From Candidatus Sungiibacteriota bacterium (GTDB lineage: Bacteria; Patescibacteriota; Minisyncoccia; Sungbacterales; HO2-52-23), in contig CP066690.1 in NCBI GenBank assembly GCA_016432465.1, positions 122,702 through 186,701 of the forward strand: a DNA stretch of 64,000 nucleotides, in the 5' to 3' direction. Under the pieces are notes generated by a model. That model did no database searches. It was not told the origin of the DNA and saw only the letters and a list, made by a program, of their open reading frames with translations. This document shows positions 13,525 to 45,838 of this stretch, in pieces (positions within the stretch are counted from its first letter, which is position 1; each line of letters begins with the position of its first letter). A program made the position numbers and the translations under genes.

Positions 13525-14007
13525 CGCATTGTTAACACTTTCCTCCGTCCCGCTTTTGATAAAAAGGTATTGGGGGTAAAGATGCTCGGCGAAGTAAAGA
13601 CGCCCCTCTTTTATTCTCCCCGCCTCGCTAAGCGTCCGTGCCGCCCCGTAGGTTATGTCCTTGATACTTATTCCTCGCTGACAGCGGCACTTCCGATTCT
13701 TTCCCCCAGTGAGGGGCTCGACCCCGCGTACTTATAACCGAAAGCGGGGCGGAGGTACGAAAGCGTGGTTGAGCGGATGGGAGTGAACGAGGAAGTTTGG
13801 TCGAGGCTATGTTCGCCTGAAGACAATGGGAGGAGCGATTTGCTTAGTTCCGAGCCGTAAGGCTAGGAAAATCGCGACGACCCTTAGCGAGCTTGCCGCT
13901 GGAGCAAGCGAGTCGTGTCTGAAGGCGAATATGGCGGAGGGCACCGAATTCCTAGTATATCCTGATCATCAGAACACTCAACCGCGCTTTCAGTATTAAC
14001 AACGCGA
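13525..14007 (+). mobile_element. GC-rich non-coding MITE-like structured element, copy B, with terminal inverted repeats
   Basis: Termini CGCATTGTTAAC (13525-13536) and GTTAACAACGCG (13996-14007). Interior GC-rich, hairpin-rich, with no credible ORF. Blocks of strong similarity to the reverse complement of 45201-45838, e.g. CAGCGGCACTTCCGATTCTTTCC..CAGTGAGGGGCTCGA.CCC, AAGCGGGGCGGA and AACCGCGCTTTC. Confidence 0.5.
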
Positions 14008-14089
14008 CTAAATTTTATAGAAAAAAACGGCCTGATCTGTCGATAGGCCGTTAAAGCTGTGGTTGCACCAAATTCGCTGGTGCGATAAA

Positions 14090-14812
14090 TTAAATAATTG
14101 ATTGATGCAGAGTAATCTCGTACGCCACTTCACGACGTCGGGATCCCAAGGTGTAATTTTCGCCGCGCAAAATATACATAATACCAAAGTGGGGCCTGGA
14201 ACGTACAACAGAAGTATTGGGATAAGAGCCGTGAATCAGGTTACCGTGCTGAACGTATAAAGATCCTTTCGGTAAATAAAGATCACTTTTGTCATAATGA
14301 GCAGGGACCCCTACTTCATTGCCGGGATTGTCCTGCGGATCAAAACTTGGGTGCGGTACAAACGGCAGAAGCGGCTCGTGATGTGATTGCGGATAAAGAT
14401 ACATGCCACCGTTTTCCGGATCACTATCTGCCAGAGAAAAAATGGCCGAGAGCGATACACCACGGCGCGCCCGAAGATAAGCATTGTCCTGATGCGGACG
14501 CCAAGCGTGTCTGGCAAAAGGCGTACCGGGCTTTTTAAATAAAACTTGCGACCCGATGCATAATGCCTCTCCACCCAGCACCTCTTCAACTATCGCCACA
14601 AGTAACGGCTGTTTTATTAAATGCAGAATTTCTGGTGCCTTCAACTCAATGTTTAAAATCCCCGGGAAGTCCGACTCCGCGTGCGCTTCAAAAATTGCAA
14701 GTAACCAAGCGCAGTAGTCAGATGAAAGAAGGTTGTTAACGACCAAATAGCCCTTTTCTGCATAAAAAATTCTCTCGGCTTCAGTCAGTACTGACGGCAT
14801 GATCTCTACCAC
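14090..14812 (-). CDS. Phytanoyl-CoA dioxygenase (PhyH) family Fe(II)/2-oxoglutarate-dependent oxygenase
   Basis: WRPHQDNAY motif and a downstream H; about 240 aa. Confidence 0.65.
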   Translation of the reverse strand: MVEIMPSVLTEAERIFYAEKGYLVVNNLLSSDYCAWLLAIFEAHAESDFPGILNIELKAPEILHLIKQPLLVAIVEEVLGGEALCIGSQVLFKKPGTPFARHAWRPHQDNAYLRARRGVSLSAIFSLADSDPENGGMYLYPQSHHEPLLPFVPHPSFDPQDNPGNEVGVPAHYDKSDLYLPKGSLYVQHGNLIHGSYPNTSVVRSRPHFGIMYILRGENYTLGSRRREVAYEITLHQSII

Positions 14813-14875
14813 CTCGATGTCCTTTAAATTATGGTACTTGAGGGCCGTTTAGGAGTCAAGATGAAAAATTTATCG

Positions 14876-14906
14876 GTACAAAAAAGGGGTTCTAGACCCC
14901 TTTTGG
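14876..14906 (-). terminator. Rho-independent terminator candidate (symmetric, could act bidirectionally)
   Basis: AAAAAGGGGTTCTAGACCCCTTTT palindrome with flanking A/T runs, immediately downstream of the stop at 14919. Confidence 0.55.
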
Positions 14907-14918
14907 TTATTATAGAGG

Positions 14919-15755
14919 TTATGTAAACCGCCTGCATCTAACAGCTTTTTTCCAGGATTCGTGGCCGCAAGCTAAACACGCTTCTTTTCTCTGCGCTATT
15001 CTGCCCGGCACAAAGTTCTTGCCCTTGCTGATTCCTAAAGTGCCGTAAGGCACAAGCAACATGGCCCGCGACCTTTCAGACTCATTGGAACGCGATCCAT
15101 GAATAACGTTGCCATGCAGAAAAAGAACACTACCTTTCTTAAATTCAAGATCAACGGCTTGGTACCTGGATGGAACTTCTACGCAATGTCCCGGACTTTT
15201 TCCTGATTTCTCATGGAAACTTTTTACTTTAACGCTCGGCAGTATAGGCTCTTTATGTGAGCCGGGATAAATATACATTCCGCCATTCTCAACAGTGTGA
15301 TCTTCAAGAGCAATGTTGCCGGTAATGTACATACCGTAATCTGCCTGCGGGTAGGCATTGTCTTGATGCGGATTCCATGCCTGCAAGGCATAGGAAGTTC
15401 CAGCCCGTTTGAAAAGAACCATGGACTGCAAATGAACAACCTCCGCGAGCTGCAGTATACCTAAAATCTTAACCAGGCGGTGGTCGCTAATCATGGACCA
15501 GACAGCCAGACTGTCATCTGCCAAAACCTCCCTGCGCTCAACTTTTTCATTACCGTCTGCATCCTGTTCCTGATACTCAACAAAGCCGCGTTCCAAATTC
15601 ATGATGCCGCGAAAATCAGGCTTGGCATAGCGCTCATAAACCCGCAGTACGGCTCCGCACTCTGCCGGAACAAAAACATCAGGCACAACTAAATAACCGT
15701 TTTCTTTATAAAGTTGTACTTGTACTGAAGTCAGGCCGCACCCGCAAATATCCAC
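14919..15755 (-). CDS. PhyH-family Fe(II)/2OG dioxygenase (paralog)
   Basis: WNPHQDNAY motif. Paralogous to 14090..14812. Confidence 0.65.
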   Translation of the reverse strand: MDICGCGLTSVQVQLYKENGYLVVPDVFVPAECGAVLRVYERYAKPDFRGIMNLERGFVEYQEQDADGNEKVERREVLADDSLAVWSMISDHRLVKILGILQLAEVVHLQSMVLFKRAGTSYALQAWNPHQDNAYPQADYGMYITGNIALEDHTVENGGMYIYPGSHKEPILPSVKVKSFHEKSGKSPGHCVEVPSRYQAVDLEFKKGSVLFLHGNVIHGSRSNESERSRAMLLVPYGTLGISKGKNFVPGRIAQRKEACLACGHESWKKAVRCRRFT

Positions 15756-15839
15756 GGTCTCTTTCTCCTTTTACAGATGCTTTTTGGAGTATAAAGACTC
15801 GGCGTGGCCGTGTCAAATAGCATGAATGGTGATCTCCGC

Positions 15840-16529
15840 CTATATCATACTCTGTATAAGCGGATGGTCTTTGAGTTCTGTAAACTCCTCTAGTACTTCG
15901 TCCGCCTCCGCGAGCTGCTCGCGACCCAAGGTGGAAGCTATAGCAATGCAGTAAGCCCCGGCGGCTTTAGCGGCCCTTATTCCCAAGGGCGCATTTTCTA
16001 CCACTACACATTTTTCAGGATCAACACCCAGCATCCTTGCGCCTTTCAGATACGGATCTGGAAAGGGCTTACCGCGCTCTGTCATCTCGCCTGTTATAAT
16101 AGCCTTAAATTTTTCCAAAAAAGATGACGGTACAGTTACGGAAATTCTTTTAAACTGTCCGCCGCTTACGATAGCAAGGGGCACCCCTCGCTGATGCAAA
16201 GATTCCACGAGCTCCTCCACACCCGAATAAAACTTAAGCTGTTTACGGTGTCCGACGTAATGGCGATCTTTTTGCGCAACAATCTGATCGGCTAAAGTCA
16301 GGGCGTCAGGCCTGTCACCAAGTCCGCAAAAAATCTTAGCCATCTCACGGGTAGGCATACCCTCATGCGGCAAAAATTCTTCCCGCGTGAGGGCAATACC
16401 AAAATCTGCCAAGACCGAATGCCACGCCCTAAAATGATCTTCCATGGTGTCGGCCAAAACCCCGTCAAAATCAAATAATATTCCTCTAAAATTTCTCATG
16501 TAAGCAGTTGAAGCGTTTCTCTCATCCAC
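15840..16529 (-). CDS. HAD-superfamily hydrolase (HAD-IA, phosphatase/beta-phosphoglucomutase-like)
   Basis: LFDFDGVLADT motif I and a later GD motif. Confidence 0.65.
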   Translation of the reverse strand: MDERNASTAYMRNFRGILFDFDGVLADTMEDHFRAWHSVLADFGIALTREEFLPHEGMPTREMAKIFCGLGDRPDALTLADQIVAQKDRHYVGHRKQLKFYSGVEELVESLHQRGVPLAIVSGGQFKRISVTVPSSFLEKFKAIITGEMTERGKPFPDPYLKGARMLGVDPEKCVVVENAPLGIRAAKAAGAYCIAIASTLGREQLAEADEVLEEFTELKDHPLIQSMI

Positions 16530-17002
16530 TCACCCATGTATTTATAATGAGGACTTGTAACTAAGTTACCGTCTACCACCACCGACGCATCCTCGTAAGT
16601 AGCCCCCGCATTTTCAATGTCGTCCTTAATGCTGTAGTAACCGGAGATTTTTCTGCCCTTGATAATTTTGGCGGAAATCAAAAGCTGAGAGCCGTGGCAT
16701 ATCGCAGCAATAACCTTACCTTTTTCGTGAAATTCCCTGATAATGCGCAAAATGTCCTGATCCTGTCTTAAATACTCCAAAGACCGTGCGCCTCCGGGAA
16801 GAATAAGTAAATCGTAATTATCAATTTTAATTTCAGGTATGTCTAGGGTTGGCACTACTTTTACGCCTATTACGCCGAAAACCGTTTCTTTGTCCCGTAC
16901 CGCAACATCAACACCCCAACCCGCCTCCTGAAGACGATAGTAAGGATAAACATATTCCACATCCTGCACAAATTTTCCGGTTATAATTAATGCTTTCCTC
17001 AT
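16496..17002 (-). CDS. DJ-1/PfpI family protein
   Basis: 168 aa; VIAAICHGSQLL nucleophile-elbow motif. Confidence 0.65.
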   Translation of the reverse strand: MRKALIITGKFVQDVEYVYPYYRLQEAGWGVDVAVRDKETVFGVIGVKVVPTLDIPEIKIDNYDLLILPGGARSLEYLRQDQDILRIIREFHEKGKVIAAICHGSQLLISAKIIKGRKISGYYSIKDDIENAGATYEDASVVVDGNLVTSPHYKYMGEWMRETLQLLT

Positions 17003-17763
17003 GCCACTGTTTTTTTAATGGCCATTAATTCCAGAGTTTCGTCATTGGCTAAACCATCCTCACGGGCTAAATGCTGCCACAGCATAGAGTCACCTGTGGC
17101 CATTATACCTGTTCTATCCTTGCCTAAAAGTCTTCCCTGAAGCAGCGCAATAACTGTGGGCTCAAAACTATTCAGTTGTTCTTTGAGCTCCGGCCAAGAA
17201 CCGGCAGTGACTACTACCACCTCGCACTCGCCTATCTTTTTTGTACACCGATACCGTTCCTTCTCATTATGAAAATGGCAGACGGAGTCATCCCGCACCG
17301 CATGAAATTCGTGTCCTTCGTAACGTTTTCCCTGCCTGCCGTACTCGTCATCAATTCTAAAAAGATCTGTCTTGCAGGTTGGTGTCTCAACCTCCATAAT
17401 GACGGCCCAGTCAGGATTTAAAGCCTCAGTCGTATGAAATACCCCCTTTCCAAATATAAGACCCTCGCCGGCTTTAAGTTGGTGTTTGGAACTATAGGTT
17501 TTACTGCTAACTTCTCCGGCCAAAACCGTGAGCGAGGTTTTTTTGTTGGGATGACAATGAAAAGATGTTTTTGCCCCTTTTTTCATGTGGAGCGCCCATA
17601 CAGCTGCGTCTTTATTCTGGAAAATTAAATACTCAAAGCCCCAAGGCTTTTTTATAAGTACGTTCCTGTAATCAAAAGTGTCGTCTAGTTGCTGCAGCTC
17701 GCCCGGTGAAAACAGGGTGAGAGCCTTTTTGTCTTTTTCTGACTGTTGAATCCAATGAATCAT
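16999..17763 (-). CDS. Cupin-domain protein related to mannose-6-phosphate isomerase type II / GDP-mannose pyrophosphorylase C-terminal cupin
   Basis: KKPWGFEYLIF...SFHCHPNKKTSLTVLAGEV...IMEVETPTCKTDLFRIDDEYGR matches the M6P-isomerase type II cupin pattern (PWG, two His, EVQ, DivR.dDvYgR). Confidence 0.5.
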   Translation of the reverse strand: MIHWIQQSEKDKKALTLFSPGELQQLDDTFDYRNVLIKKPWGFEYLIFQNKDAAVWALHMKKGAKTSFHCHPNKKTSLTVLAGEVSSKTYSSKHQLKAGEGLIFGKGVFHTTEALNPDWAVIMEVETPTCKTDLFRIDDEYGRQGKRYEGHEFHAVRDDSVCHFHNEKERYRCTKKIGECEVVVVTAGSWPELKEQLNSFEPTVIALLQGRLLGKDRTGIMATGDSMLWQHLAREDGLANDETLELMAIKKTVA

Positions 17764-17879
17764 GGCTGGGGGTCATCTCCAAAACCTTTTTCATAGCGAG
17801 GTTGCTCAATCTGCAGCAGAAAAGGGGGTTTAGAGATGGCCCTGTAATAATAAAACGCCGGGGTTTGCTCGCTGGTATC

Positions 17880-17912
17880 AAATTAAAAACCGTCCCGATT
17901 GGTCGGGATGGT
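17880..17912 (-). terminator. Rho-independent terminator candidate
   Basis: Hairpin ACCGTCCCGAttggTCGGGATGGT followed by a T-run on the minus strand, downstream of the stop at 17922. Confidence 0.5.
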
Positions 17913-17921
17913 CTTAAATGT

Positions 17922-18899
17922 CTATTCTAGATCATGCTGCACAATATTTTCACGATACCAGGCAAGGGTACGCTTTAACCCCTCATCCAGAAGAATCTGC
18001 GGGGTCCAACCAAAATTTCTTTCAGCCTTACTTGAATCCAGAACAGGTTTGGAAGGAATAGCCGACTTGAGGGCGCCAAACTCCACCCTAAGGGGTTTTT
18101 GCATCAAAACCATAACCTTCTCCAGAAGCGCGCGCAGGGAAAGAGGGCTACCCGATCCAATACTATAGATCTCAAAGGAACTGGATTGCTTACCCAAAAG
18201 TAATTCAATAAAACGTACAAGATCCGAAACATATAGGAGGTCTACTTCCTCGCTTCCATCGCCATCTACGTTGATCGTTCCCCCGTGTGGTGCCGACATG
18301 ACTTTAGTGATAGCGGTACCGACTGTGCGGGAACTTTCGAGGTTGAATCTGTCATGCGGACCATAAATACTGGCGGGTCGCACAATACTAAATCGTGTCC
18401 TACTACGCATTGAATAAAAGTCACAAAGACGCTCTGTATATAATTTTGTTAATGCTGCGCCAATGTCTTTTTTATCAATTCGTCCCTGACCCGTAATGCT
18501 TTCCCAATCCGGACGACCCAAACACAGAAAATAAACTGCTGGGCTGCTCAAAAAAATAAATTGTTTAACAGAGTTTCTAGCTGCCTCCTCAAGTAACAAC
18601 ATATTCATCACGATATTAGCGGTTGAATCAAAGTACGGCGGGATCGCCTGATCTTTGGCATCTGAAGTTGCGGCAGCTGCATGAATAACCACATCAAAGC
18701 CTACCTGCAATATCTTTGGTATAAGATCAAGATCCCGCAGATCAACCCGAAGAAGCTTGGGGTTTACGCTGAACTTTCGCGAAAAGTAGGTGCCATAAAC
18801 TTCAAGATCTGCTCGCTGGGAAAGAGCTTCAAACAAATTTCTCCCGATAAAACCCGAGGCGCCGGTGATAAGCACACTCTGCTTTTTTGCATGTGCCAT
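17922..18899 (-). CDS. NAD-dependent epimerase/dehydratase (GDP-fucose-synthase-like extended SDR)
   Basis: VLITGASGFIGRNLFEAL Rossmann motif. Paralog of 22161..23138. Confidence 0.7.
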   Translation of the reverse strand: MAHAKKQSVLITGASGFIGRNLFEALSQRADLEVYGTYFSRKFSVNPKLLRVDLRDLDLIPKILQVGFDVVIHAAAATSDAKDQAIPPYFDSTANIVMNMLLLEEAARNSVKQFIFLSSPAVYFLCLGRPDWESITGQGRIDKKDIGAALTKLYTERLCDFYSMRSRTRFSIVRPASIYGPHDRFNLESSRTVGTAITKVMSAPHGGTINVDGDGSEEVDLLYVSDLVRFIELLLGKQSSSFEIYSIGSGSPLSLRALLEKVMVLMQKPLRVEFGALKSAIPSKPVLDSSKAERNFGWTPQILLDEGLKRTLAWYRENIVQHDLE

Positions 18900-19044
18900 A
18901 CCAATACCTCCTCCATTTTTTAGGCGCTGTCTATTATGTATCAGTTACTTTACAAATTGTCAATCAACCCGTTTTCAGCGCTTTTATCCACGCACCAAAA
19001 GACCACGGGCTTGCCCGTGGAGCTTCATCTTTAAAAAGGAACTA

Positions 19045-19082
19045 GAACTTATGACTCGCGCCTAGGCGCGAGTCATAAGTTC
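19045..19082 (-). terminator. Perfect 17-3-17 palindrome overlapping the stop of the transketolase C-subunit gene; probable terminator or protein-binding site
   Basis: GAACTTATGACTCGCGCC-TAG-GCGCGAGTCATAAGTTC, followed on the minus strand by a T-rich stretch. An additional hairpin CCACGGGCttGCCCGTGG lies at 18999-19016. Confidence 0.45.
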
Positions 19083-19967
19083 TTTTACTTTTTTCATAAT
19101 GCGTTCCGGTGTGGGCGGCAGGTTATCAAGATGGGGCGCAAAACCCGCGGTGCGTTCCTCCAGACACAAAACATCAATCTTCTTTGAGCTTTGGCGCATA
19201 ATGTCAAAACCAATACACTTGGCCACGCCGTTTTCAAAATCGCCATCAATAATCAGCCCTCCATGGCGTGAACTCTCCAACGGCCCCAGAATCCGTTCGT
19301 CGGCAAGAAACGGCTTAAGCCAAAAGAGATGCACAATGTTTACTGCTATGCCCTCTTTAGCCAGTTCCTGCGCAGCCGCTATGGCATTAAGGCGGGTGGA
19401 AGAAATGGGGTAAAGTGTAACGTCGGCGTTGGGGTGCACCACGTCTTCCATTTCATAATCAATTTTAAAACTGGTGCGATGTTCGGATACATACATAGGA
19501 CTGTCATGCTCCATAAAAAAATCCCAAGCTTTTCGGTACTCTCCCGATGTCATAGGGGCTACAATAAATACTCCCGGCATACGCTCAAACATTCCATGAT
19601 GACTCCCGGAAGCCACAGGACCCATTCCTCCGTCCATACCAATAGAGCGGACAAAAAGAGGACAGGGAATTCCCCAAAGTTCTTTTGACTTGGCGGCATA
19701 ATTAGCTATGTGCGCAGCATTAAACCACTGAAATCCCTGATAGCGCACGATATATATGGGCCGTCGGCCTGCTAGAGCATAGCCAACCGCAATTCCGCCC
19801 CCAGACACATCGGCCATGGCAAGCTCTACGATGCCCTCTTCCACCGTCATTTCGGGTACTGTTCCGCCCACCCAGCCAACAGCCGTAAGACACTGCCCCA
19901 AAGCAACACCGTTGTTTTCTTTCAGGTGCTTACGCGTTATTTCCCTGATAGTTTCTGCTGAAGTCAT
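19062..19967 (-). CDS. Transketolase-family C-terminal (pyrimidine-binding plus C-terminal domain) subunit
   Basis: Similar to the split transketolase / E1-beta layout. Adjacent to the TPP-binding N-terminal subunit gene. Confidence 0.65.
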   Translation of the reverse strand: MTSAETIREITRKHLKENNGVALGQCLTAVGWVGGTVPEMTVEEGIVELAMADVSGGGIAVGYALAGRRPIYIVRYQGFQWFNAAHIANYAAKSKELWGIPCPLFVRSIGMDGGMGPVASGSHHGMFERMPGVFIVAPMTSGEYRKAWDFFMEHDSPMYVSEHRTSFKIDYEMEDVVHPNADVTLYPISSTRLNAIAAAQELAKEGIAVNIVHLFWLKPFLADERILGPLESSRHGGLIIDGDFENGVAKCIGFDIMRQSSKKIDVLCLEERTAGFAPHLDNLPPTPERIMKKVKELMTRA

Positions 19968-19975
19968 AAAATTAA

Positions 19976-20977: not shown

Positions 20978-20989
20978 ACGGGTGAGCTG

Positions 20990-21580
20990 ATGGATCTGGA
21001 ACTTTTAACGCCTCAAAAAGTAGGCGAGGCGACTGAACTGGTAAAAAGGGTTTTTGGGAAAACGCTTCTTAGCCAAAAATTTCGCAAGCCAACTACCGGA
21101 GAGATCTATGAATACGCGATGCATGACTATAAGTCGGGTAAGGTGCCTTCCTTGGTCTTTCCCCTAAACGTAAAACACGAAGTTGTTGCCCTTAGACAAT
21201 TCAGGCATGCTGCCAATCACTGGCTCTGGGAGTTCCCCGGAGGAAATCAGGTGACAGATGAATTGCCGGAAGAGGTGGCCAAACGAGAACTGCTGGAAGA
21301 AACCGGCTATGCCCCCACTCAACTAATCTTGCTAACCCCAAAACCCATTTGGTGCGAGCCGGCTGACTACGTTAATCCTTTTTATGCGTTTCTGGCCACA
21401 GACTGCAACCTTACCAGTAAACCACTGCTTGACCCCACAGAGTATCTGGAAGTTAAAACTTTTCCGCTATCCCAGTGGCTGGCCATGATCTGGGATGGAA
21501 AAATACGAGATTCCAAAACTATTGCAATCACTATGCTGGCACTTCCGCATCTTAATACAGAGGTCAGAAACTATAAATAA
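20990..21580 (+). CDS. NUDIX hydrolase
   Basis: Nudix box [26 protein letters not shown]. Confidence 0.7.
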   Translation: MDLELLTPQKVGEATELVKRVFGKTLLSQKFRKPTTGEIYEYAMHDYKSGKVPSLVFPLNVKHEVVALRQFRHAANHWLWEFPGGNQVTDELPEEVAKRELLEETGYAPTQLILLTPKPIWCEPADYVNPFYAFLATDCNLTSKPLLDPTEYLEVKTFPLSQWLAMIWDGKIRDSKTIAITMLALPHLNTEVRNYK

Positions 21581-21585
21581 CAACG

Positions 21586-21619
21586 GCCTCGACGTTACGT
21601 CGAGGCTGTTCTTTTTTTT
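21586..21619 (+). terminator. Rho-independent terminator (between convergent genes, likely bidirectional)
   Basis: GCCTCGACGTtACGTCGAGGC hairpin followed by a TTCTTTTTTTT run. Confidence 0.7.
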
Positions 21620-21642
21620 ATTCCAGAAAAAATATGAAGCGA

Positions 21643-22161
21643 CTAGCCATGCGGCAGGGAACGTATTTTTTCAATTATATCCGAGGTGGACAGATCTCCG
21701 TGCCCGGGTATGAGGGAACGCTCCGATATCACAAGTTCTACACCGTGTTTTTGCGCTAACTCCCGTCTATAAGGAATATCCCAAGCATCGGTGTTGATGA
21801 CGTATTTATCGGGTTTTAAAAGCTCCATTACCGTGCCCAAAAAGGCAAGCGGGTAACCTTCCACAGGAACATCCAGAAAGCAAAAATCTACGACCCTTAG
21901 CGATCCAACCATTTTCAGTCGGGCCTGCTCATTTAAAATCGGCCTTCCTTCTCCTTTGTTTTTTCTAATTAAGGCATCATGGGCTACCTCGACCACCAGT
22001 ATATCGCCAAGTTTTTTACACTTCTCAAAAAAAGCAACGTGCGCCGCGTGAAGGAGGTCAAACGCTCCGGAAACAAAAACTATGACTTGGCCCCGGAACT
22101 TACTTCTTACCAGAGGCAAATCTCTATACTCTATGAAAGTCCCCAGATCCTTGACAGCCAT
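21643..22161 (-). CDS. Cytidylyltransferase-like (HxGH) nucleotidyltransferase, RfaE domain II / glycerol-3-P cytidylyltransferase-like
   Basis: VSGAFDLLHAAHV HxGH-type motif; 172 aa. Confidence 0.6.
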   Translation of the reverse strand: MAVKDLGTFIEYRDLPLVRSKFRGQVIVFVSGAFDLLHAAHVAFFEKCKKLGDILVVEVAHDALIRKNKGEGRPILNEQARLKMVGSLRVVDFCFLDVPVEGYPLAFLGTVMELLKPDKYVINTDAWDIPYRRELAQKHGVELVISERSLIPGHGDLSTSDIIEKIRSLPHG

Positions 22162-23956: not shown

Positions 23957-24022
23957 ATCATTCCCTCGTTAAGGTGCTTATATACTAATAAAACATCCTG
24001 TGACAAAAATCAAGTCACGCCC

Positions 24023-24051: not shown

Positions 24052-24097
24052 AAATTGTCCGTACTTTGTCATTACAACACAACGACGGGGGTAACCA

Positions 24098-24667
24098 ATG
24101 CTCCACAGGCCCGTACCAATCGGTGAATTAATTTATCTAGTGGATCCGGTCTTTGGTAAAACTCTTGCCAAGCAAAGATTTCGTCACCCTACTACCGGCG
24201 AAGAATACGACTACATCTTTCTTCACGGAACAGCTCGTTGGTCCTCCATGGTAATGCCCATAACCGAAGATGGAAAAGTTGTCATAGTCTATCAATTCCG
24301 TCATGGCGCCAACGACTATATTTATGAATTCCCCGGAGGTAACGCGGATGGTGCAGAGTCTCCAATAGAGGTGGCCGCAAGAGAACTAACGGAAGAGACC
24401 GGATTTGTGGCTAAGAAAGTTTTGCCGCTGGTGCCAGAAAACATATTCATTGAACCGGTCAGCAGTATGGGAAGACTTTATGTGTATTTAGCGGTTGGCT
24501 GTCAAAAAGTAAAAGAGCCGACCCTTGATCCTTACGAATTTTTAGAAATCCAATGTTTCCCTCTGGAAAAGTGGTTTCAAATGATTCGGCAGGGAACGAT
24601 CGTAGACATGAAAACCGTTGCTATAACCCATCTGGCAGAACCCCTGCTTAAAGAAGTTGGATACTAG
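24098..24667 (+). CDS. NUDIX hydrolase (paralog)
   Basis: Nudix box EFPGGNADGAESPIEVAARELTEETG; sequence similar along its whole length to 20990..21580. Confidence 0.7.
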   Translation: MLHRPVPIGELIYLVDPVFGKTLAKQRFRHPTTGEEYDYIFLHGTARWSSMVMPITEDGKVVIVYQFRHGANDYIYEFPGGNADGAESPIEVAARELTEETGFVAKKVLPLVPENIFIEPVSSMGRLYVYLAVGCQKVKEPTLDPYEFLEIQCFPLEKWFQMIRQGTIVDMKTVAITHLAEPLLKEVGY

Positions 24668-24722: not shown

Positions 24723-25262
24723 CTAAATTTCACTAAGCTCTGGCGGCGCCAACCTCCACTTAATAAGAAAAAGTACGCCCAGCAAGCCAACCGGTTGAGG
24801 GTCTGTCTTCGTAAACATATCTATAAACTCACTTGGGGTAGCGGTTAAAACCTCTATGCCCTCCTCGGCTTGGACGCTACCTTTGTTTTTTTTTGCATTG
24901 CGGCCAAAAAAAACATGTATGTTGTCATTGATCCTATCGGCCGCCCCCAAAGCATTACCGACAAACTGCAGGTTAGAACAGACATAACCGGTTTCTTCTA
25001 AAAGTTCTCTCTGGGCGGCCTCCAGCGGAGATTCGCCCTGCTTTATTCCGCCTGCCGGTAATTCCAAAACAATCCTGTTGACTACCGGCCTAAACTGCCG
25101 TACCAAAACCATCTTCCCCTCTTCTGTAAAAACAGCCAGCACCACGCTTTGGGGAACATTAAGACGATAAATCGGTTTGCCGCATAAGGCAGGGAGATTT
25201 GGATATTCCTCGCTCTCTATATCAAACCAGTCAGTATGCAAAACAACTATTTTATTGGGCAT
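24723..25262 (-). CDS. NUDIX hydrolase (ADP-ribose/GDP-sugar pyrophosphatase-like)
   Basis: Nudix box [27 protein letters not shown]. Confidence 0.7.
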
Positions 25263-25286: not shown

Positions 25287-25781
25287 TTAAATCGCCCTTA
25301 TCTTTTCAATAAGTTTTGTCGTTGACACTTGATCAAATTTTTTAGGGCAGCGTCTTTTAAGAACAGCAAACTTTATCCCTAATTTTTGGATAAGGTGCCT
25401 ACGGGTAGGTATATCAAAAGCGTCTTCGTTGACTACGTAGACATCGGGTTTAAGCCTGCGAAACATTTCCTCCATAAAACCAAGCGGCCGTCCCTTGGGG
25501 GCGGAAGACACAAGACAATAATCAACGGGTTTCAGGGAGTTTATCATTTTTGCCCGCATGTGGTGATTGAAGATGGGACGCTTTTCACCCTTGATGTCGC
25601 GTATGGAGACATCATCCCCGACGGCCACCACCAAAATATCTCCTTGCTTTTTGCAGTCTTCCAAAAATAAAACATGGCCGGGATGGGTCAAATCAAAAGT
25701 GCCGGAGCAAAAAACAATGGTTTTATGACGATGCTTACGTCTAACTTCGGCTAATTTATTTATGCTGATTAGTGACGCCAT
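25287..25781 (-). CDS. Cytidylyltransferase-like (HxGH) nucleotidyltransferase, paralog of 21643..22161
   Basis: FCSGTFDLTHPGHV motif; 164 aa. Confidence 0.6.
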   Translation of the reverse strand: MASLISINKLAEVRRKHRHKTIVFCSGTFDLTHPGHVLFLEDCKKQGDILVVAVGDDVSIRDIKGEKRPIFNHHMRAKMINSLKPVDYCLVSSAPKGRPLGFMEEMFRRLKPDVYVVNEDAFDIPTRRHLIQKLGIKFAVLKRRCPKKFDQVSTTKLIEKIRAI

Positions 25782-25789
25782 TTTGGTAA

Positions 25790-25970
25790 AAATCCTATTA
25801 TCTCTGGCAGAATACCTCGCGGCTTTGCCGCGAGGATGAATGCCAGCCCGGAGTCCCGGCTTGCCGGGACGGAGGAGATAACCCCGACGGTGTCGTCCGA
25901 TTTCAGGACGCGTATTCCATCAGGAATACCGCGCAGCTTGGGAAGTCAGACTTCCCTTGCTGCGCGGTCG
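25790..25970. repeat. Intergenic cluster of GC-rich hairpins including a GGGAAGTCaGACTTCCC palindrome module
   Basis: Hairpins CCTCGCGGCtttGCCGCGAGG, GTCCCGGCttGCCGGGAC and GCGCAGCttGGGAAGTCAGACTTCCCttGCTGCGC. The last one shares the GGGAAGTCnGACTTCCC core with the 120-bp element and with 45794-45810. Confidence 0.4.
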
Positions 25971-25971
25971 G

Positions 25972-28679: not shown

Positions 28680-28825
28680 CCCCAACTCCCCCTTTAAGTG
28701 AAAAACAGCTAAAACTAGCTGTTGCACATAAATAACTAGGTGTCAATGGTTGACACTGGTGCAAAAAACTGGCGTGTAAATACGCCAGTCACTGTAGGTG
28801 TTGCTGAAAGCAACACTTGGCCTTT

Positions 28826-29671: not shown

Positions 29672-29707
29672 CCTTCCAAGTCGCTGGAGTCAAAAAATTC
29701 AATAAAT

Positions 29708-29828
29708 CCCCCCACCTTCCCAGCAGGGTATTGGACCCCGCGGGAAGGATTTCTACGGCGCCCATTCGTCCCCGCAGCAAGGGAAGTCTGACTTCTCAAG
29801 CTGCGGGGTATTCTAGGAAGGTGGGGGG
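29708..29828. mobile_element. About 120-bp palindromic MITE/RPE-like element, copy 2 (intergenic)
   Basis: CCCCCCACCTTCCCAG ... CTAGGAAGGTGGGGGG. About 90% identical to 2848-2967, including the AATAAATCC leader and the GGGAAGTCTGACTTC core. Confidence 0.6.
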
Positions 29829-29922
29829 ATAAAAGAGCCAGACCGTATATTACTTAGAGTATAGCAAATAAAATAATCCCTGTCAATTAAAAAAATATAC
29901 CGCCGCAGGGCGGTATATTCCT

Positions 29923-35982: not shown

Positions 35983-35990
35983 AACAAAAT

Positions 35991-37784: not shown

Positions 37785-37787
37785 GTG

Positions 37788-38369: not shown

Positions 38370-38439
38370 ATTAACTACTATAACGCTTACGGAACATAAA
38401 TGGTAAATCCCGCATGAAGCTCATGCGGGATAAATTAAG

Positions 38440-39621: not shown

Positions 39622-39780
39622 CCTGCTACCTCCTCAAATGAAAAGAGCTGGACCCCTCCAGCCCAAAATATATATTAAGAAATTGTTAAGAAAAGTCAAG
39701 CCGGTCTTAACCATTCGCAACATCCATGAGTCGTATCACGAAAGAATTACCGAACTTTTGTTACCAATGTCTTGAAGGAT

Positions 39781-39806
39781 TAAAAAAACCCTGACCAGGG
39801 GTCAGA
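39781..39806 (-). terminator. Rho-independent terminator candidate
   Basis: Hairpin CTGACCaggGGTCAG followed on the minus strand by GGTTTTTTT. Confidence 0.55.
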
Positions 39807-39822
39807 GCTTATCGAGTTTTTG

Positions 39823-40482
39823 TTACAGATGCGGCCGTCGTATTCTAGAACGAGGTGCCCTCGTCGTAGTCCGTGAAGACTTGCTTGGGACCTGTGCTGC
39901 CTGCCTAAACGAACGGTACGGTTCTTCTGCACTCCAGTGAGTTAGATTCAAGTCTCTCCAGCACAAACCACAAATATCGAAGTTACATTCGTGTCGACAG
40001 CAAATTCCAATTATGTGGTCACCCACAAGGTTTTCTAACCGTTGCCACTCTCTTTTGGCGGTCCTTATCTTCATATCATAAGGCTGAAGCCTTCTAGCTA
40101 ACTCTGTCCCGGAAAGTCCTTCAACGATTGCTTGTACCTGTGCTTTATGCTGTTCAATCGCCGCTGCGCCAACAATTTCTGCCTTTTTCCTGAAAACTTC
40201 CCGTATTCTTTGTAGCAGAGGGGCATTTATTCCTAGCCCTGTATCCCTTTCGGGATCACCCCAAAGAGTGGGATAGAAGCCAAATTCTTTTTCAAATATG
40301 CGGCGCTCCCTATTCAAATATATATATTTGATAAGCCAATAGGAACCGGCAAGAGCCAAAGGTATAGAGACGAACACCACACCTTTGATGAAAAAGATGA
40401 GGGTGAGTGCGACCAAAACACTAACTACTCCTGTATCCAACAGAGAAAGAATATACCACTTGCCGCAGTTGAACTTACCCAT
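39823..40482 (-). CDS. Membrane protein with C-terminal Cys-rich motif (hypothetical)
   Basis: Start placed at MGKFNCGKWY, which is preceded by a GGAGAAGGGGA RBS. Two TM helices, then CCRHECNFDICGLC. Hairpins at 40521-40590 sit upstream in the 5' region. Confidence 0.4.
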   Translation of the reverse strand: MGKFNCGKWYILSLLDTGVVSVLVALTLIFFIKGVVFVSIPLALAGSYWLIKYIYLNRERRIFEKEFGFYPTLWGDPERDTGLGINAPLLQRIREVFRKKAEIVGAAAIEQHKAQVQAIVEGLSGTELARRLQPYDMKIRTAKREWQRLENLVGDHIIGICCRHECNFDICGLCWRDLNLTHWSAEEPYRSFRQAAQVPSKSSRTTTRAPRSRIRRPHL

Positions 40483-40637
40483 TCCGTCCCCTTCTCCGAT
40501 GTTCCTCATCGGATGTCCACGGTTCGTCCGTGGCCCGGCGTTCCCCGCCAGGAGTAAAAGTTTCTTGTCAAACCCTTACTCCTGGCAACGATCTATGCCT
40601 AAGACCATTAAAATCCTAACATGTAATAAGTTTTACG

Positions 40638-42038
40638 TCAAGCTCGCTCCAGAGAAAGTAAAACTTGTGCCAACAGTTCTGTGGCTCTTCCGTCCTGCGG
40701 CCCCAAAAAGCGGGAACGCAGACATTCCCGCCCCTTCTCGTCCAGAGACGGGTTTTTAAGATACTTGCTAATTGTTCTTTCAAACTCTTTAGGGGAAGAT
40801 ACCGCCCGTACTCCTCCCGTTGTGATAAGATCTGTCCAATAAAAAGCCGTACCGTCATAAAAACGGGCAAAAGATTTCCAATACGGAACATCGGGCGCAG
40901 CATCAAAAGCAGTAACCACCATGGGTTTTTTAAAAACTGCGGCCTCAAGCAGAATGGCGCCTCCGGGTGTTATCAGCATCTCGCTGTAGCGCATGGCGTT
41001 TATAAAACTGTTTATGTTTCCCCGGTCTATGGTCGGGTCAGGATATTTGAGATTGGTGGTATTTACAAAATCAACCACCACCGAATCAAAACGACGCGAC
41101 CTTAACTCTTTTAGGGCTTCAGCCGCGCCGGCATAATAGGGTTGGGGCCTGAAGATCATAACCAAATCTTTGGGCAGGCGTCCGTTTTGGACCAATTTTC
41201 CAAAAAGCTCTACAAAAGCAAGATCGCGCCCCAGATCCCCAATGCCGCTATCGGCATAAAGGATACAGCGTTTTCGCGGGTCAATTCCGAGTGCCCTGCA
41301 AAACTCCTCGCGCGACGGCAGGGACTGATCTGTCTTAAACCAGTCAAAATAAGGAAATCCGGTGACATGAATTCTGTTTTTCGGAAAAAAGTTAAATCGT
41401 ACTGCCATGTCTTTTAAAAATTCATTCTGTAAAATCAGATGGTCGGGGTGAAAAAGCAAAAAAGAAGTCGGACCAAGGTTGGTCCACATACGTACCGAAG
41501 CGGCTGTTGTTGCGCCGTAACTTCGGGCCGCAAGAAGTATAGGAACATCAAAAGTCCATTCAGTAAGCGACGTTGCAAATACCAGATCTGGTTTTATCTC
41601 CTGAAAAAGAGGGGACAGAGATGAAGATACTGAAATCTTGGCAACCACCCGCCTGACAAGTCGCTGGGTGAGGCGTGAAGGAATAAATCCCACCAGGCGC
41701 CACAACAAAAGACGCGGTATAAGAAGAAACCAAGACTTGCCACGACGCACGCTGCGGTAAATCTGATGACGCACTGCTGCAAAATTAACCAAAACATTCT
41801 CGGAGACCAAAACGCAAATCCTAAATAAAAAAGAAGGGCGTCCTGTCCCCACCCGCACCCCCATAACTCTTACCCGTTCCCCTTCAAATTCTTCCTGATA
41901 TTGTTTTTCAAATCCTTTCTCAACCAGAAGCACCACCTTTACATTTCCGCTTGAGACAAGTTTTTCCAGAAGCCCGCTTCTTAAAAAATAACGCTGAATA
42001 AGCTTAGTGTTTTTTACGCAAATACAAATAGTCTTCAT
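40638..42038 (-). CDS. GT-B-like TagF/KpsC-family transferase, paralog 2
   Basis: Paralogous to 34630..35982, with a shared N-terminal layout and a C-terminal block ITPGGAILLEAAVFKKPMV. Confidence 0.35.
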   Translation of the reverse strand: MKTICICVKNTKLIQRYFLRSGLLEKLVSSGNVKVVLLVEKGFEKQYQEEFEGERVRVMGVRVGTGRPSFLFRICVLVSENVLVNFAAVRHQIYRSVRRGKSWFLLIPRLLLWRLVGFIPSRLTQRLVRRVVAKISVSSSLSPLFQEIKPDLVFATSLTEWTFDVPILLAARSYGATTAASVRMWTNLGPTSFLLFHPDHLILQNEFLKDMAVRFNFFPKNRIHVTGFPYFDWFKTDQSLPSREEFCRALGIDPRKRCILYADSGIGDLGRDLAFVELFGKLVQNGRLPKDLVMIFRPQPYYAGAAEALKELRSRRFDSVVVDFVNTTNLKYPDPTIDRGNINSFINAMRYSEMLITPGGAILLEAAVFKKPMVVTAFDAAPDVPYWKSFARFYDGTAFYWTDLITTGGVRAVSSPKEFERTISKYLKNPSLDEKGRECLRSRFLGPQDGRATELLAQVLLSLERA

Positions 42039-43408
42039 GAATACAGCTTCTTAAGCAAAATACGCGCGATTCTTTCCCCCACCCTTCCGTCATACGGCTC
42101 AAGAAATTGTTCTCGGACGCGTTCCCTCCCCTCAAAGTCCAGATGCGGATTTTTAAGATAAGATCTGATGGCATTTGCAAATTCCTCCGCAGTATCAGCC
42201 CGACGAAAACCGCCGGTTTCAAGCAACGCTTGCCAATGCGACCAATGGTCCAAAAACCGTCCTGCCGAAAACCAGTAGGGCGCGGGTCCGGCCTCAAAGC
42301 CCACTGATATGGCGGGTTTATCCAAAACAATACCGTCAATACCCAAAGTGGAGGCAACGGTCACCACCATTTCGCTGTGGAAAATAGAATTCATAAGATG
42401 CGCCGTCTCTTTCTCCCGCATCTCCCAAACATCAGCCGCTGACTTGGTAAAAGAACTGATATCAGGCACCACATAACGCAGTCCCTCTATTCTTTCCATA
42501 GAACCGGTGGATCCGGGATAAGGACGAAAGAGCATAATAAGATCTTGCGGAAGCTTTCCCGACTCTACCAGATTATTAAAAATACGGGCAATTTCTCCAT
42601 CGCGCGGAAACCAGAAATATTCCATAGCGCCAAAAAATATAACGCGTTTTTTGGGATCAATGCCCAGACGCGCCAAAAAATCCTGACGGCTATCAATTAA
42701 GTCCTTCCTTAAAAACCAGTCGTTTCTGGGGAATCCAACGCGGATTGTGCGTTGGTCAGGGATAAATTGATATTTTTGCGCGGTCTTGCCGGCAAAACGG
42801 CTGTGCACCAATAAAATATCCGGCACCACCCTCATCACACCGCTATTGGTAAAGTTATCCCAGCCGCGCGTAATACCAATGGTCTGAACCATCCGGCGTC
42901 TGGCTTCGCGCAAAATAGGAACATCCATCTGGGCAAACATGGCTACCGTGGAAAAAACTAAACTGGGATGGTAACGCTCAAAAAGCTGTCCGACACTCGG
43001 ATGCGGCGGCAAAAAGGTTTCGGCCGTGCGCAAAAACTTTTGGAAAATACGCGAGCGTCCGAGAAAAAACCAAAGACCGCGTTTTAGAAAAAAAGCAATA
43101 TGCCGCATCAATCCCTGCGTCGTTAAGTATTTACGCATCTGATTCAAGGTAACGGTACTGGTACGCAGAGCATTGAGGGCCAAAAATAGCATCAGCCGCT
43201 CAAGAGTAGAAAAAGGAATGGATGGAAGCGCCTCTACCAAGATATTGTCTCCGCTAAATTCTTTTCTGTATTCTTCGGCTTTAGACGGAGGCACAATAAG
43301 GACAATACGAAAATTACGTCCTGCCAAAAGCTTCCTCCAAAATTCGCCGCGCAGAAGATGATGCGCCACGCTGGCCTCTCCCACGGTAATAAAAATAGTC
43401 TTGGTCAT
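42035..43408 (-). CDS. GT-B-like TagF/KpsC-family transferase, paralog 3
   Basis: Paralogous to the two above (TVASTLGIDGIVLDKPAI). Confidence 0.35.
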   Translation of the reverse strand: MTKTIFITVGEASVAHHLLRGEFWRKLLAGRNFRIVLIVPPSKAEEYRKEFSGDNILVEALPSIPFSTLERLMLFLALNALRTSTVTLNQMRKYLTTQGLMRHIAFFLKRGLWFFLGRSRIFQKFLRTAETFLPPHPSVGQLFERYHPSLVFSTVAMFAQMDVPILREARRRMVQTIGITRGWDNFTNSGVMRVVPDILLVHSRFAGKTAQKYQFIPDQRTIRVGFPRNDWFLRKDLIDSRQDFLARLGIDPKKRVIFFGAMEYFWFPRDGEIARIFNNLVESGKLPQDLIMLFRPYPGSTGSMERIEGLRYVVPDISSFTKSAADVWEMREKETAHLMNSIFHSEMVVTVASTLGIDGIVLDKPAISVGFEAGPAPYWFSAGRFLDHWSHWQALLETGGFRRADTAEEFANAIRSYLKNPHLDFEGRERVREQFLEPYDGRVGERIARILLKKLYS

Positions 43409-45159
43409 TTTTTCTTCAAAAGATAGGGGCCCAAGACAAGATAGCGAAGCCCGGAATTATCAAAAACGTGCAGTGCGTCCTCCGGCGTATAAACTATGGG
43501 GTGGCCGTGAAGGTTAAAAGACGTATTGAGGATAATCCCTTCTCCGGTCAATCGCTCAAATTCAGAAATTATCCGAAAATAAGACGGGTTAGAATCTGAC
43601 GACACTTCCTGGGGTCGGCAAGTGTTATCGTAAGGATGAAGGGCCGCCGCAAGCTTATCCACCTTCCCCTCTTTTACGTCAAAAGTAAGAATCATGAAGG
43701 GCGCAGGAACGCATTTGGGATTTTCAACATAGCGATCAAGCTCAATACAGGACGGAGCAAAAGGCATCCAAAAATCCCGTGATTTTATCATGCGATTAAT
43801 TTCCTTAACGACCCCCCACTCGCGAGGATCCGCAAGAATAGAACGATTACCCAAAGCCCGCGCCCCAAATTCCATTTTTCCGTCAAAACGCGCGACTACA
43901 GCGCGGCCGGCAAGAAGCTCCGCAATTTTTCTCTCCACATTTTCCGGGCGTTCCCACTCTACGGCGTTTCGAAAAGCATAGGAGCGTATGGACTTCTCCA
44001 CCTCTTTATCCGAAAAATCTCCACCAAGATACAAATGCCGCAAGGGCTGCGGCACCTTGCCGGTCAAATTTTGATAAGCAAGATAAAGACCGCCAAAAAC
44101 ATTGGATTCGTCCCCGCAGGACGGGAATACAAAAAGCTTTTTCACCCCTTCAAGCTCCATTATTTTTTTATTGAGCTTGACGTTCATAAATAAACCCCCG
44201 GAAAGAGCAAGATTGCTGATCTTTAGGGTGCCCAGGATGTTATGAACCCACTCCGTCACAAATTCTTCCACAAAAAGCTGAAGACCGGCTGCAATGTGGT
44301 CAAAACGATAAAACTTAAGGTCGCGCGTAAGACGCGGCCCCAGTTTATACGTTGCCTCAATTCCCGGTGACCTGTGATAGGTCAAACCATCGTCGTTTAG
44401 CAGAAAAAATTTTTTAAAATAAGCGCAAAGCTCGCGGGCAGAGCGTGAATCCTGCGCATAGGGCGCCAAACCCATTACTTTATACTCATGCTCCAGCGGC
44501 ACCATGCCAAGATAATAGGTAATCAGGGCATAAAGGCGCGCAATGGAATCTTCCACGGGGATTAGGGCCAGACGCTTCAGCACTCCGCCCTCCAAAACAC
44601 TGACGCTGCCCGACAAATTGTCTCCGGCGCCGTCAGAAGTAATTACCACCAGCTTCTCCCCCAGACCCCATCCGTAAGCGGCTGATGCGGCATGGCACAG
44701 GTGATGATCAAAAAATTTAATTTTTGATCTAGAAACCCCTAGATCCAACAGGGGTTTCATCCGGCGCTCTAAAAACTCCGCCCTTTTCCTTTCCTGCAAA
44801 ATCCCAAAAACCGGAGAAGGAAGAAAGCCGACTAAGCTCTTTTGGGCTGTACGCAAAAAGGAAACAGGAGACAGTTTTCTTTCTTCAAAAAGATTTCTGT
44901 GTTTTTGCATCAGATACTCCACCCCTTGCCCCTTTTTCCACCCTCCGGTATTTAGCGCATCGGTGAATACAAAAATATCAACATCCCGGATATGGAGTTG
45001 GTGCCTTTGCAGGAGCTCCTGCAAAGCAAGCTCCGGAAAACCGGCTGTATTTTTTATCCGCGTAAGTCGCTCCTCTTGTATGGCAAACTTCACTTCGCCT
45101 TCTTCCATATAAGCAAGGGAGGCGTTGTGGCCGTCTTGTATGGCGACAATTTTAATCAT
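43405..45159 (-). CDS. Carbamoyltransferase (NodU/CmcH family)
   Basis: N-terminus IVAIQDGHNASLAY...EERLTR and overall 584-aa layout typical of O-carbamoyltransferases. Confidence 0.7.
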   Translation of the reverse strand: MIKIVAIQDGHNASLAYMEEGEVKFAIQEERLTRIKNTAGFPELALQELLQRHQLHIRDVDIFVFTDALNTGGWKKGQGVEYLMQKHRNLFEERKLSPVSFLRTAQKSLVGFLPSPVFGILQERKRAEFLERRMKPLLDLGVSRSKIKFFDHHLCHAASAAYGWGLGEKLVVITSDGAGDNLSGSVSVLEGGVLKRLALIPVEDSIARLYALITYYLGMVPLEHEYKVMGLAPYAQDSRSARELCAYFKKFFLLNDDGLTYHRSPGIEATYKLGPRLTRDLKFYRFDHIAAGLQLFVEEFVTEWVHNILGTLKISNLALSGGLFMNVKLNKKIMELEGVKKLFVFPSCGDESNVFGGLYLAYQNLTGKVPQPLRHLYLGGDFSDKEVEKSIRSYAFRNAVEWERPENVERKIAELLAGRAVVARFDGKMEFGARALGNRSILADPREWGVVKEINRMIKSRDFWMPFAPSCIELDRYVENPKCVPAPFMILTFDVKEGKVDKLAAALHPYDNTCRPQEVSSDSNPSYFRIISEFERLTGEGIILNTSFNLHGHPIVYTPEDALHVFDNSGLRYLVLGPYLLKKK

Positions 45160-45200
45160 AAATTAAATAAATTAGTATAATTATAATCGTAAGAAATCAT

Positions 45201-45838
45201 CGCGTTGTTTACGCTTTGGAAAGCGCGGTTCCCTCGTCCCCCCCTTCTCCGCTCACGGGTTCCAGCGCGGACAAATTCTACGCGCTCCGCTCAAGGAACC
45301 CTCGGTGTTCTCCGACTACGGTCGGAGCCACCGTTTCCCCTTCGCTCCGCCTGCGTGAATTTGTAGCCGCGCTTCCACAGTTCGCGGAAGAAGGGGGGGC
45401 TCGACCGCGCTTTCAGGATTTCCGCCCCGCTTTTTGTATAGATACACGGGTTCGAGCCCCTCACTTGGTGGAAAGAATCGGAAGTGCCGCTGTCAATGGG
45501 GGGCCGGGGAGAGAAGACATCACGGAGCGGCACGGACGTCCCGCACATATCCCGAACGCAGTGAGGTTAAAGTGCGCGATCCCGTACTGTCCGCGAATGA
45601 TGACCTTGGTATTACCAAGAACTCATTCGGGATATAACGGGATCCTCGCAACTGGTAGCCGCTCACTATGTTCGCGGACAGTTGCGGGACTTAGCGAGGC
45701 GGGGAGAATAGAGGAAGAATTTTTACCCCGCCGAGCGTCTTTACACCAAGTGAGGGACGAGGGGCACCCGTGATACCTTTTTACAAAAAGCGGGGAAAGT
45801 CTGACTTCCCGGGGCGGAAAAGTGTAAACAACGCGGTT
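45201..45838 (-). mobile_element. GC-rich non-coding MITE-like structured element, copy A, with perfect 12-bp terminal inverted repeats
   Basis: Termini CGCGTTGTTTAC (45201-45212) and GTAAACAACGCG (45827-45838). The interior is about 60% GC with many hairpins. It is block-homologous, in inverted orientation, to 13525-14007, with an extra insertion of about 160 nt. It contains a GGGAAAGTCTGACTTCCC palindrome at 45794-45810. The plus-strand ORF 45216..45773 is low-complexity and judged spurious. Confidence 0.5.

Follow-up and report, generated by a model that had tools for sequence, protein, structure and literature searches.

Elements A and B are two structured sequences embedded in a glycan gene island of Candidatus Sungiibacteriota (assembly GCA_016432465.1, contig CP066690.1, positions 122,702 to 186,701 of the forward strand; we call this 64,000-nucleotide stretch the window). 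They belong to a single family of non-coding elements that occurs in a small group of genomes of the candidate phyla radiation (CPR; Patescibacteria/Parcubacteria-like). The explanation that we favour, with even rather than high confidence, is that this is a rare family of discrete, non-autonomous, nested-palindrome elements that spread or were transferred as a unit and then decayed. Their interior three-way junction would have been maintained by selection and read by some factor, and A, B and a miniature third member of the window would be independent copies.

An initial annotation of the window had recognised A (45201-45838) and B (13525-14007) as two diverged, GC-rich, hairpin-dense, non-coding elements in inverted orientation. 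Both sequences were found at these positions and have these properties. The plus strand of B matched the minus strand of A (blastn, E = 8e-24) in collinear blocks of 75.9% identity over 145 nucleotides (nt), 80% over 60 nt and 91% over 22 nt. Exact runs of 26, 21, 14, 13, 12 and 12 nt are common to the two elements in the same order, and every long interior block previously quoted as shared occurs in both. Their GC content (0.570 in A, 0.533 in B) exceeds that of the rest of the window (0.466); across the copies it lies 4-10 points above that of the hosts. Both strands of each element fold far better than shuffled sequences, with z-scores of -13 and -16 in A and of -5 and -7 in B. The sequence common to the copies extends ~12 nt outside the CGCG termini, up to 5'-GTARG...CTTAC-3', and we therefore place A at 45189-45847. 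For all copies, "A(+)-like" denotes the orientation of element A on the window plus strand; this strand is antisense to the flanking minus-strand genes at A and co-directional with the flanking genes at B.

Some details of that first description had to be amended. A and B do share one type of terminal inverted repeat, but the right arm of B reads ATTAACAACGCG (13995-14006) and not GTTAACAACGCG; with the corrected arm, 10 of 12 positions pair. The arms of A pair at 17 of 17 positions, plus the outer GTAAGA/TCTTAC. The extra stretch reported in A exists but measures 151 nt (45539-45689) rather than ~160 nt, and a long hairpin, arm 1, also differs between the two elements. Finally, the family in the window comprises not only A and B but three members, the third being an 89-nt miniature at 845-933.

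We aligned the five distinct long copies, namely A, B and those of three loci from other genomes (L009, L037 and L032). Their common parts are a closing helix P1, arm 1, helices P3, P4 and P5, and a three-way junction, and what had been taken for a terminal inverted repeat is the closing helix of this large fold. The core spans ~400 nt and, with hairpin expansions, the elements reach up to 660 nt; length varies only at helix tips and at one junction. The three-way junction is composed of GGAAAGA/TCTTTCC, CG-GAA-GTGCCGC...GCGGCAC-GGA-CG and GC-GA-GGCGGGG...CCCCGCC-GA-GC. Across copies, the base of arm 1 (GAAAGCGCGGT/ACCGCGCTTTC) and its internal loop are conserved; the arm interior measures ~65 nt in L009 and L037 and ~196-233 nt, with unrelated sequences, in A, B and L032. 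Private to A are two added hairpins, one of 151 nt at the junction and one of 19 nt within the P3 3' strand. Two of the five distinct long copies are decayed: B is degenerate, without the 24-nt 3' strand of P5 and the conserved arm-1 internal loop, and the L037 copy has neither P1 nor the 3' strand of P3.

The fold is conserved. In a core alignment of the five sequences (A4), from which arm interiors and the A insert had been removed, we tested 90 pairs, and standard pairs occupied 92.4% of the cells. Nine pairs had changed on both sides, compared with 4.2±1.5 in column shuffles (0/500 shuffles reached nine) and 0-2 in controls with slid partners. These compensatory changes are located in P1, P3, P4 and P5, the junction helices being invariant. 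The covariation thus stands above shuffles and backs the fold, with the low power of only five sequences and with the reservation that folded DNA would give the same signal. Mean pairwise identity is uneven: 95% in the junction core, where ~70 nt of sequence are conserved across genomes, 85% in P4/P5, 74% in P3, 64% in P1 (the termini), and 59% and 49% in the two hairpin loops. This unevenness argues for purifying selection on the interior sequence, beyond the effect of recent common descent.

We found no sign that the elements encode proteins. A contains an open reading frame (ORF) of 185 amino acids (aa; 45216-45773, TTG start) without Pfam match, and three queries with translations of element ORFs retrieved no homologues from a database of 5.8 billion proteins. 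A small protein gene within the element was ruled out because ORF frames and extents are not conserved among copies. A conserved fold without any conserved ORF supports the initial proposal of one structured, non-coding element family rather than decayed protein genes. The elements had no Rfam 15 match at the gathering score in the window or at four homologous loci. At E up to 10, both elements and the shortest intact homologue gave only chance microRNA-like hairpin matches, and ARAGORN detected no tRNA or tmRNA. Our search of the literature on CPR structured RNAs or miniature inverted-repeat transposable elements (MITEs) retrieved nothing on such structured elements. The element is thus new to Rfam and to the literature searched, and it belongs to known kinds of element, not to a new kind.

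Several other identities were considered and rejected. An RNase P, rRNA or intron fragment was ruled out, Rfam placing the true RNase P RNA elsewhere in L009, and so was a cis-regulatory leader for one gene family, the downstream genes being unrelated. Likenesses to attC sites, IS608-type targets and single-strand origins were dropped since the defining partner gene or motif is lacking. The A(-)-like strand resembles in topology a retron non-coding RNA (ncRNA; msr-msd), but no reverse transcriptase gene adjoins any copy; the sole RVT_3 match near any copy is an RNase H-type protein 3 kb from the L009 element, and retron ncRNAs are much smaller than the A/B elements.

Copies outside the window are few. 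A 21-mer of the element, GCGGCACTTCCGATTCTTTCC, matched two Joint Genome Institute (JGI) metagenome contigs, L009 and L010. Among 185,579 species genomes, an 18-mer that never varies between the copies occurred at 27 loci, with real homologues in only three of these genomes; the remaining loci were discarded as bare k-mer matches, and two Clostridia look-alikes proved to be stretches of 25-30 nt in coding sequence. Parcubacteria GW2011_GWA2_45_30 (L021) carries a copy identical to that of L009, and the L037 and L032 copies come from two metagenome-assembled genomes labelled Ca. Saccharibacteria. These hosts, and a GC content close to theirs, suggest by themselves a CPR/Parcubacteria-like source for the window. 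Exact-pattern scans of viral contigs with three conserved blocks returned nothing, or bare 18-mer chance matches, and blastn against phage and plasmid collections found no copy. Logan metagenome contigs that reach A end at 45463 or 45477 (three samples), all of them breaking within 45448-45492, and some end at a conserved 30-mer of B (two samples); these breaks probably reflect other family members, in the community or the genome, that confuse the k = 31 assembly graph, and hint at more copies. The window miniature was found through a short blast match to an end of A, and end pairs of its type appeared in 0/100 shuffles, even at a threshold of at least 20/29. Beside it, an ORF of 209 aa without family match (247-876, plus strand) has its last codons and stop inside the miniature, which may supply its 3' end unless the ORF is spurious.

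Each copy lies between two co-directional genes and occupies most or all of the spacer. The neighbours are unrelated across genomes: glycan genes in the window, PilM and HisRS genes in L032, genes for peptidoglycan-binding proteins in L037, and VKOR and CcdA-like genes in L009, where PGK and RNase P RNA are also nearby. Both orientations of the element coexist in one genome (A versus B). The initial annotation had named, as a finding that would refute it, an absence of additional copies together with strict synteny; this refutation fails, since further copies occur in the window and in other genomes, at non-syntenic sites.

Because of the shared ends, the unrelated contexts, the two orientations, the decayed copies and the miniature, we interpret the family as a discrete non-autonomous mobile unit. 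We infer that the whole unit moved or was transferred. Its interior junction would be the selected part, probably recognised by a trans-acting protein as folded single-strand DNA or RNA. Copies would afterwards decay, as B and the L037 copy have done, or collapse into ends-only miniatures. Where co-transcribed, they would form a highly stable RNA structure between cistrons (-180 to -330 kcal/mol), effective in either orientation. The earlier label "MITE-like" fits only in a loose sense. The members are short (89-660 nt), non-coding and non-autonomous, with no conserved ORF or Pfam match, and their ends are common to A, the miniature, L009 and L032; these discrete ends come with both orientations, decayed copies and an ends-only miniature. 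By contrast, the label fits poorly in that there is neither a target-site duplication nor a cognate transposase, and that the termini (64% identity) are less conserved than the core (95%), the reverse of a classical MITE.

These last features also weigh against a mobile unit, and they are not alone. Inspection of the ends of A, B, the miniature, L009 and L032 with both end definitions revealed no consistent target-site duplication. No transposase or partner gene lies within ±4-8 kb of the copies in four genomes, with the exception of a gene for an IS200-like Y1 transposase (211 aa) ~2 kb downstream of the L037 copy, two genes away. No parent insertion sequence with the same ends is present in the window or within ±4-8 kb of the other loci, and six ORFs without Pfam match, considered as candidate partner proteins, yielded nothing relevant in NCBIfam and PHROGs scans. 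The copy number seen is low, with three in 64 kb and one per 8-kb locus elsewhere, and the invariant 18-mer led to homologues in only 3 of 185,579 species genomes. Both full copies of the window are old and diverged, without any recent burst. No empty site was found, and the mobility is accordingly deduced rather than shown. In addition, the family has RNA-like features: interior conservation, indels at helix tips reminiscent of expansion segments, tandem G·A loops and purine-rich unpaired positions. We advance only tentatively the idea that CPR bacteria possess, in the ~400-nt core, a large ornate RNA or a folded single-stranded DNA not described before, its invariant junction with tandem G·A loops serving as a protein recognition scaffold. 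The family would then represent a mobile unit of a new sort, defined by its structure and working through its interior fold instead of its termini, like ωRNA/HEARO or ORF-less introns in spirit and unrelated to them.

Table 1 Coordinates of the family members, their parts and an adjacent hairpin in the window.
Feature	Position	Strand	Remarks
Miniature family member	845..933	+	89 nt; both 29-nt ends of A, 23/29 identical each, in correct order and orientation around only ~31 nt
Element B	13511..14018	-	~508 nt; outer ends approximate, degenerate; A(+)-like strand is the window minus strand
B, P1 arm CGCATTGTTAACACTTT	13525..13541	.	partner 13992-14006 (AGTATTAACAACGCG)
B, conserved core	13542..13758	-	blocks exactly as in A: 13679-13704 (26 nt), 13612-13632 (21 nt), 13708-13721, 13741-13753, 13633-13644
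B, arm 1	13759..13991	-	~233-nt hairpin with an interior sequence of its own
Intrinsic-terminator-like hairpin and T-run	14020..14053	-	closes the PhyH gene and, on the gene strand, immediately precedes B; outside the element
Element A, full length, fold intact	45189..45847	+	659 nt; outer ends GTAAGA...TCTTAC
A, P1 5' strand CGCGTTGTTTACGCTTT	45201..45217	+	pairs with 45819-45835 (AAAGTGTAAACAACGCG); compensatory changes across copies
A, arm 1	45219..45414	+	~196-nt rod-like hairpin; interior not homologous to the arms of B or L032
A, core 5' half	45422..45538	+	5' strands of P3, P4 and P5; invariant block GGAAAGAATCGGAAGTGCCGC; hairpin H6/H7
A-specific long hairpin	45539..45689	+	151 nt; interrupts the three-way junction precisely between GGACG and CTTAGCG, without flanking duplication
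A, core 3' half	45690..45817	+	hairpin H8 with tandem GA/GA internal loop; 3' strands of P5, P4 and P3
A-private 19-nt hairpin in P3 3' strand	45796..45814	+	palindrome GGGAA(A)GTCTGACTTCCC, common to the second repeat family of the window

Whether the fold acts as RNA, and on which strand, bears directly on the main alternative. Wobble pairs give no strand bias: in the core helices, G·U and A·C cells number 16 each (what is A·C on one strand reads as G·U on the other), symmetric counts that fit a fold used on either strand, or as DNA. The other indicators conflict. The A(+)-like strand is favoured by its GA/GA and GAA/GGA internal loops, which as read from the alignment are conserved in all copies, by a purine share of 64-66% at its unpaired positions in L009 and L032, both intact, and by its co-direction with the neighbouring genes at four of five loci. 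The A(-)-like strand is favoured by a lower minimum free energy in all five copies and by the isolated mismatches within helices predicted on both strands (16 A·C and 8 G·T). Promoter and terminator scans revealed no consistent promoter or terminator at the copies. In L009 and L032 the next gene begins ~8-21 nt from the element, which leaves no room for a promoter; the elements there must be co-transcribed.

The initial annotation had offered as an alternative a large structured ncRNA with two paralogs, and in an extended form this is a live rival, if a doubtful one. A new family of large ornate ncRNA genes, built around the ~400-nt core, would have one or few paralogues per genome in a narrow CPR clade; A, L009 and L032 would be functional, B, L037 and the miniature would be relics, and the invariant junction would be a protein-binding or catalytic scaffold. 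The interior core, far better conserved than loops and termini, is what such genes should look like, as are the compensatory changes in four helices, the restriction of length changes to helix tips and one junction, the conserved GA-rich loops with their purine-rich unpaired positions, the elevated GC content, the low copy number and the lack of any Rfam family match. But a gene would be expected to have a strand, and the symmetric wobbles give none, the mismatches and folding energies even leaning to the strand opposite to that of the loops. It would also be expected to have its own promoter and terminator, one orientation relative to its neighbours and a stable context; the copies have no consistent signals, both orientations and unrelated, non-syntenic surroundings. 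The ends-only miniature, decay in two of the five distinct long copies and an extremely patchy distribution sit poorly with gene function as well, and the covariation has low power with five distinct sequences.

A second alternative is that the elements are host-domesticated intercistronic structures, like REP/BIME or BOX sequences, retained for their punctuation of one-directional glycan operons (by partial termination, processing by RNase III or shielding of mRNA 3' ends) and not on account of mobility. The location of every copy between co-directional genes, the transcription implied for copies without room for a separate promoter and a fold equally good on both strands all agree with it. 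Other spacers of the window, moreover, are hairpin-dense, with z-scores of ~-6 to -7 (25782-25971, 28728-28825, 29672-29922 and 48581-48701). As a full account we nevertheless consider it improbable. It leaves unexplained the strong conservation of the ~70-nt junction in sequence and not just in pairing, together with the precise shared ends and the ends-only miniature, and 400-660 nt are far beyond the needs of such a role. A punctuating role could, in any case, coexist with either a mobile element or an ncRNA gene.

The initial annotation had also raised the possibility that A and B delimit an invertible or mobilisable, composite-transposon-like segment of 31 kb, and the pair does flank 14.0-45.2 kb, where the listed glycan genes are indeed present. 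This idea was not borne out and we regard it as very improbable. Only its geometry speaks for it, with oppositely oriented homologues at 13.5 kb and 45.2 kb; against it, the longest exact run between A and B is 26 nt, with 75-85% identity in blocks of at most 145 nt; B is degenerate; no transposase, integrase or invertase domain is encoded in the ORFs of 14-45 kb or beside the elements; glycan genes continue beyond one element (NeuB, SIS, nucleotidyltransferase, GT2, GHMP kinase and three radical-SAM enzymes) and beyond the other (GT1, GT2, a second carbamoyltransferase and a triple GT4); apart from two short NUDIX genes, every long gene within or beyond the segment lies on the minus strand; the cumulative GC skew is monotonic, falling steadily through both elements; independent Logan metagenome contigs that span B (three samples) are 100% identical to the window arrangement; and, as the third member at 845-933 makes plain, the copies are just dispersed. 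That A and B have opposite orientations on either side of these 31 kb is coincidental.

Known systems resemble the family in different respects. Bacterial MITEs with long and short variants, such as Correia/NEMIS in Neisseria, ERIC/IRU, RUP and BOX, measure ~100-300 nt. Like A and B, they are non-coding, have inverted-repeat ends, reside in operon spacers in either orientation, form long hairpins when transcribed, and include internal-deletion and insertion variants as well as diverged or decayed copies. The A/B family differs from them in that no target-site duplication or cognate insertion sequence was found, in its length of 400-660 nt, in its very few copies and in having the junction as its most conserved part. 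REP/BIME/REPIN sequences mobilised with RAYT (IS200-like Y1) proteins, and the IS200/IS605-derived PATEs, share with A and B their palindromic, GC-rich nature, the lack of target duplication, recognition, presumed for A and B, of a fold rather than of a linear terminal repeat and a mosaic or nested architecture; the Y1 gene 2 kb from the L037 copy adds to this likeness. REP units are 20-40 nt long and REPINs ~100 nt. In contrast to REP/RAYT systems, the window yielded no RAYT, the flanks lack a conserved tetranucleotide target, and the termini of the A/B family are truly paired. The large RNAs ROOL, GOLLD, OLE and HEARO/ωRNA are comparable in size (400-650 nt), in their ornate multi-helix folds, in their GC content relative to the host and in their conserved core with variable peripheral helices, and HEARO is itself part of mobile elements. 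Unlike them, A and B have no covariance-model match (E up to 10) and no strand-specific wobble signal, and they are not associated with tRNAs, prophages or IscB/TnpB genes.

The window contains a second GC-rich palindromic family, of ~132 nt, with copies at 2841-2972 and 29701-29833 (93-95% identical) and a part at 25924-25970. Its closing stem is CCCCCCACCTTCCCAG/CTGGGAAGGTGGGGGG, and its 17-nt palindrome GGGAAGTCTGACTTCCC recurs in the private 19-nt hairpin of A. The copy at 2841-2972 lies in frame, with 44 codons and no stop, inside an NTP-transferase ORF (2637-3491, minus strand). In this respect the second family, and not A and B, recalls the Rickettsia palindromic elements (RPE), which are palindromic repeats in frame within protein genes; it has no sequence relation to them, and translation of its insert is putative.

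Little has been documented on the non-coding and selfish DNA of CPR/Patescibacteria, whose genomes are small. The window shows a CPR-type genome with at least two GC-rich palindromic repeat families, one a 0.4-0.66-kb element with a selected junction, the other placed in frame in an enzyme gene. If the core were a functional RNA or a protein-recognised fold, it would lengthen a very short list of large structured elements and would give a handle on a mobilisation or RNA-binding system. The elements also break short-read assemblies and attract spurious ORF calls, and the analysis removes, as unsupported, the idea of a glycan-island cassette that can flip.

Regarding the immediate surroundings of the copies, B is flanked by a PhyH dioxygenase gene (14090-14800) and a gene for a B12-binding radical-SAM protein (11456-13426), both on the minus strand. 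The terminator-like hairpin between PhyH and B was read directly from the sequence; its loop exceeds 8 nt, and hence the terminator scan did not list it. A is flanked by a GT1 glycosyltransferase gene (45849-47006) and a carbamoyltransferase gene (43405-45159), also on the minus strand. In L009, a bacterial class A RNase P RNA (2829-3215, 178.7 bits) lies ~3.7 kb from the element and is adjoined by the RNase H-type (RVT_3) gene at 3247-3687. The L037 copy is closely preceded (4200-4345) by a further structured stretch rich in GC and by a terminator-like hairpin that is bidirectional; the Y1 transposase gene of that locus is at 6769-7404.

This gene array appears to have large structured spacers as a general trait. 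Those at 25782-25971, 28728-28825, 29672-29922, 48581-48701 and 17764-17921 had z-scores of -4 to -7 against mononucleotide shuffles, and some reach a GC content of 0.54-0.58. A third small repeat with the hairpin CCACGGGCTTGCCCGTGG occurs three times (18995-19031, 63871-63900 and 63972-63998), and a 76-nt palindrome with a perfect centre is located at 19026-19101. The ORF at 47864-48580 (minus strand, 238 aa), called as a gene in Logan contigs, has a foreign composition, with 0.65-0.69 GC in 100-nt windows and a GC content at third codon positions of 0.72 over its first 150 codons, where neighbouring genes have 0.44-0.49. Pfam, NCBIfam and PHROGs gave no match for it, and its last 88 codons are without codon periodicity and may be non-coding GC-rich sequence. 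Among the glycan genes, three NUDIX and two cytidylyltransferase genes form locally duplicated modules (20990-21580 and 24098-24667 on the plus strand; 24723-25262, 21643-22161 and 25287-25781 on the minus strand); apart from the two NUDIX genes, the island has no clear genes on its plus strand. Duplication extends to the PhyH, carbamoyltransferase, epimerase and CDP-glycerol-transferase-like genes.

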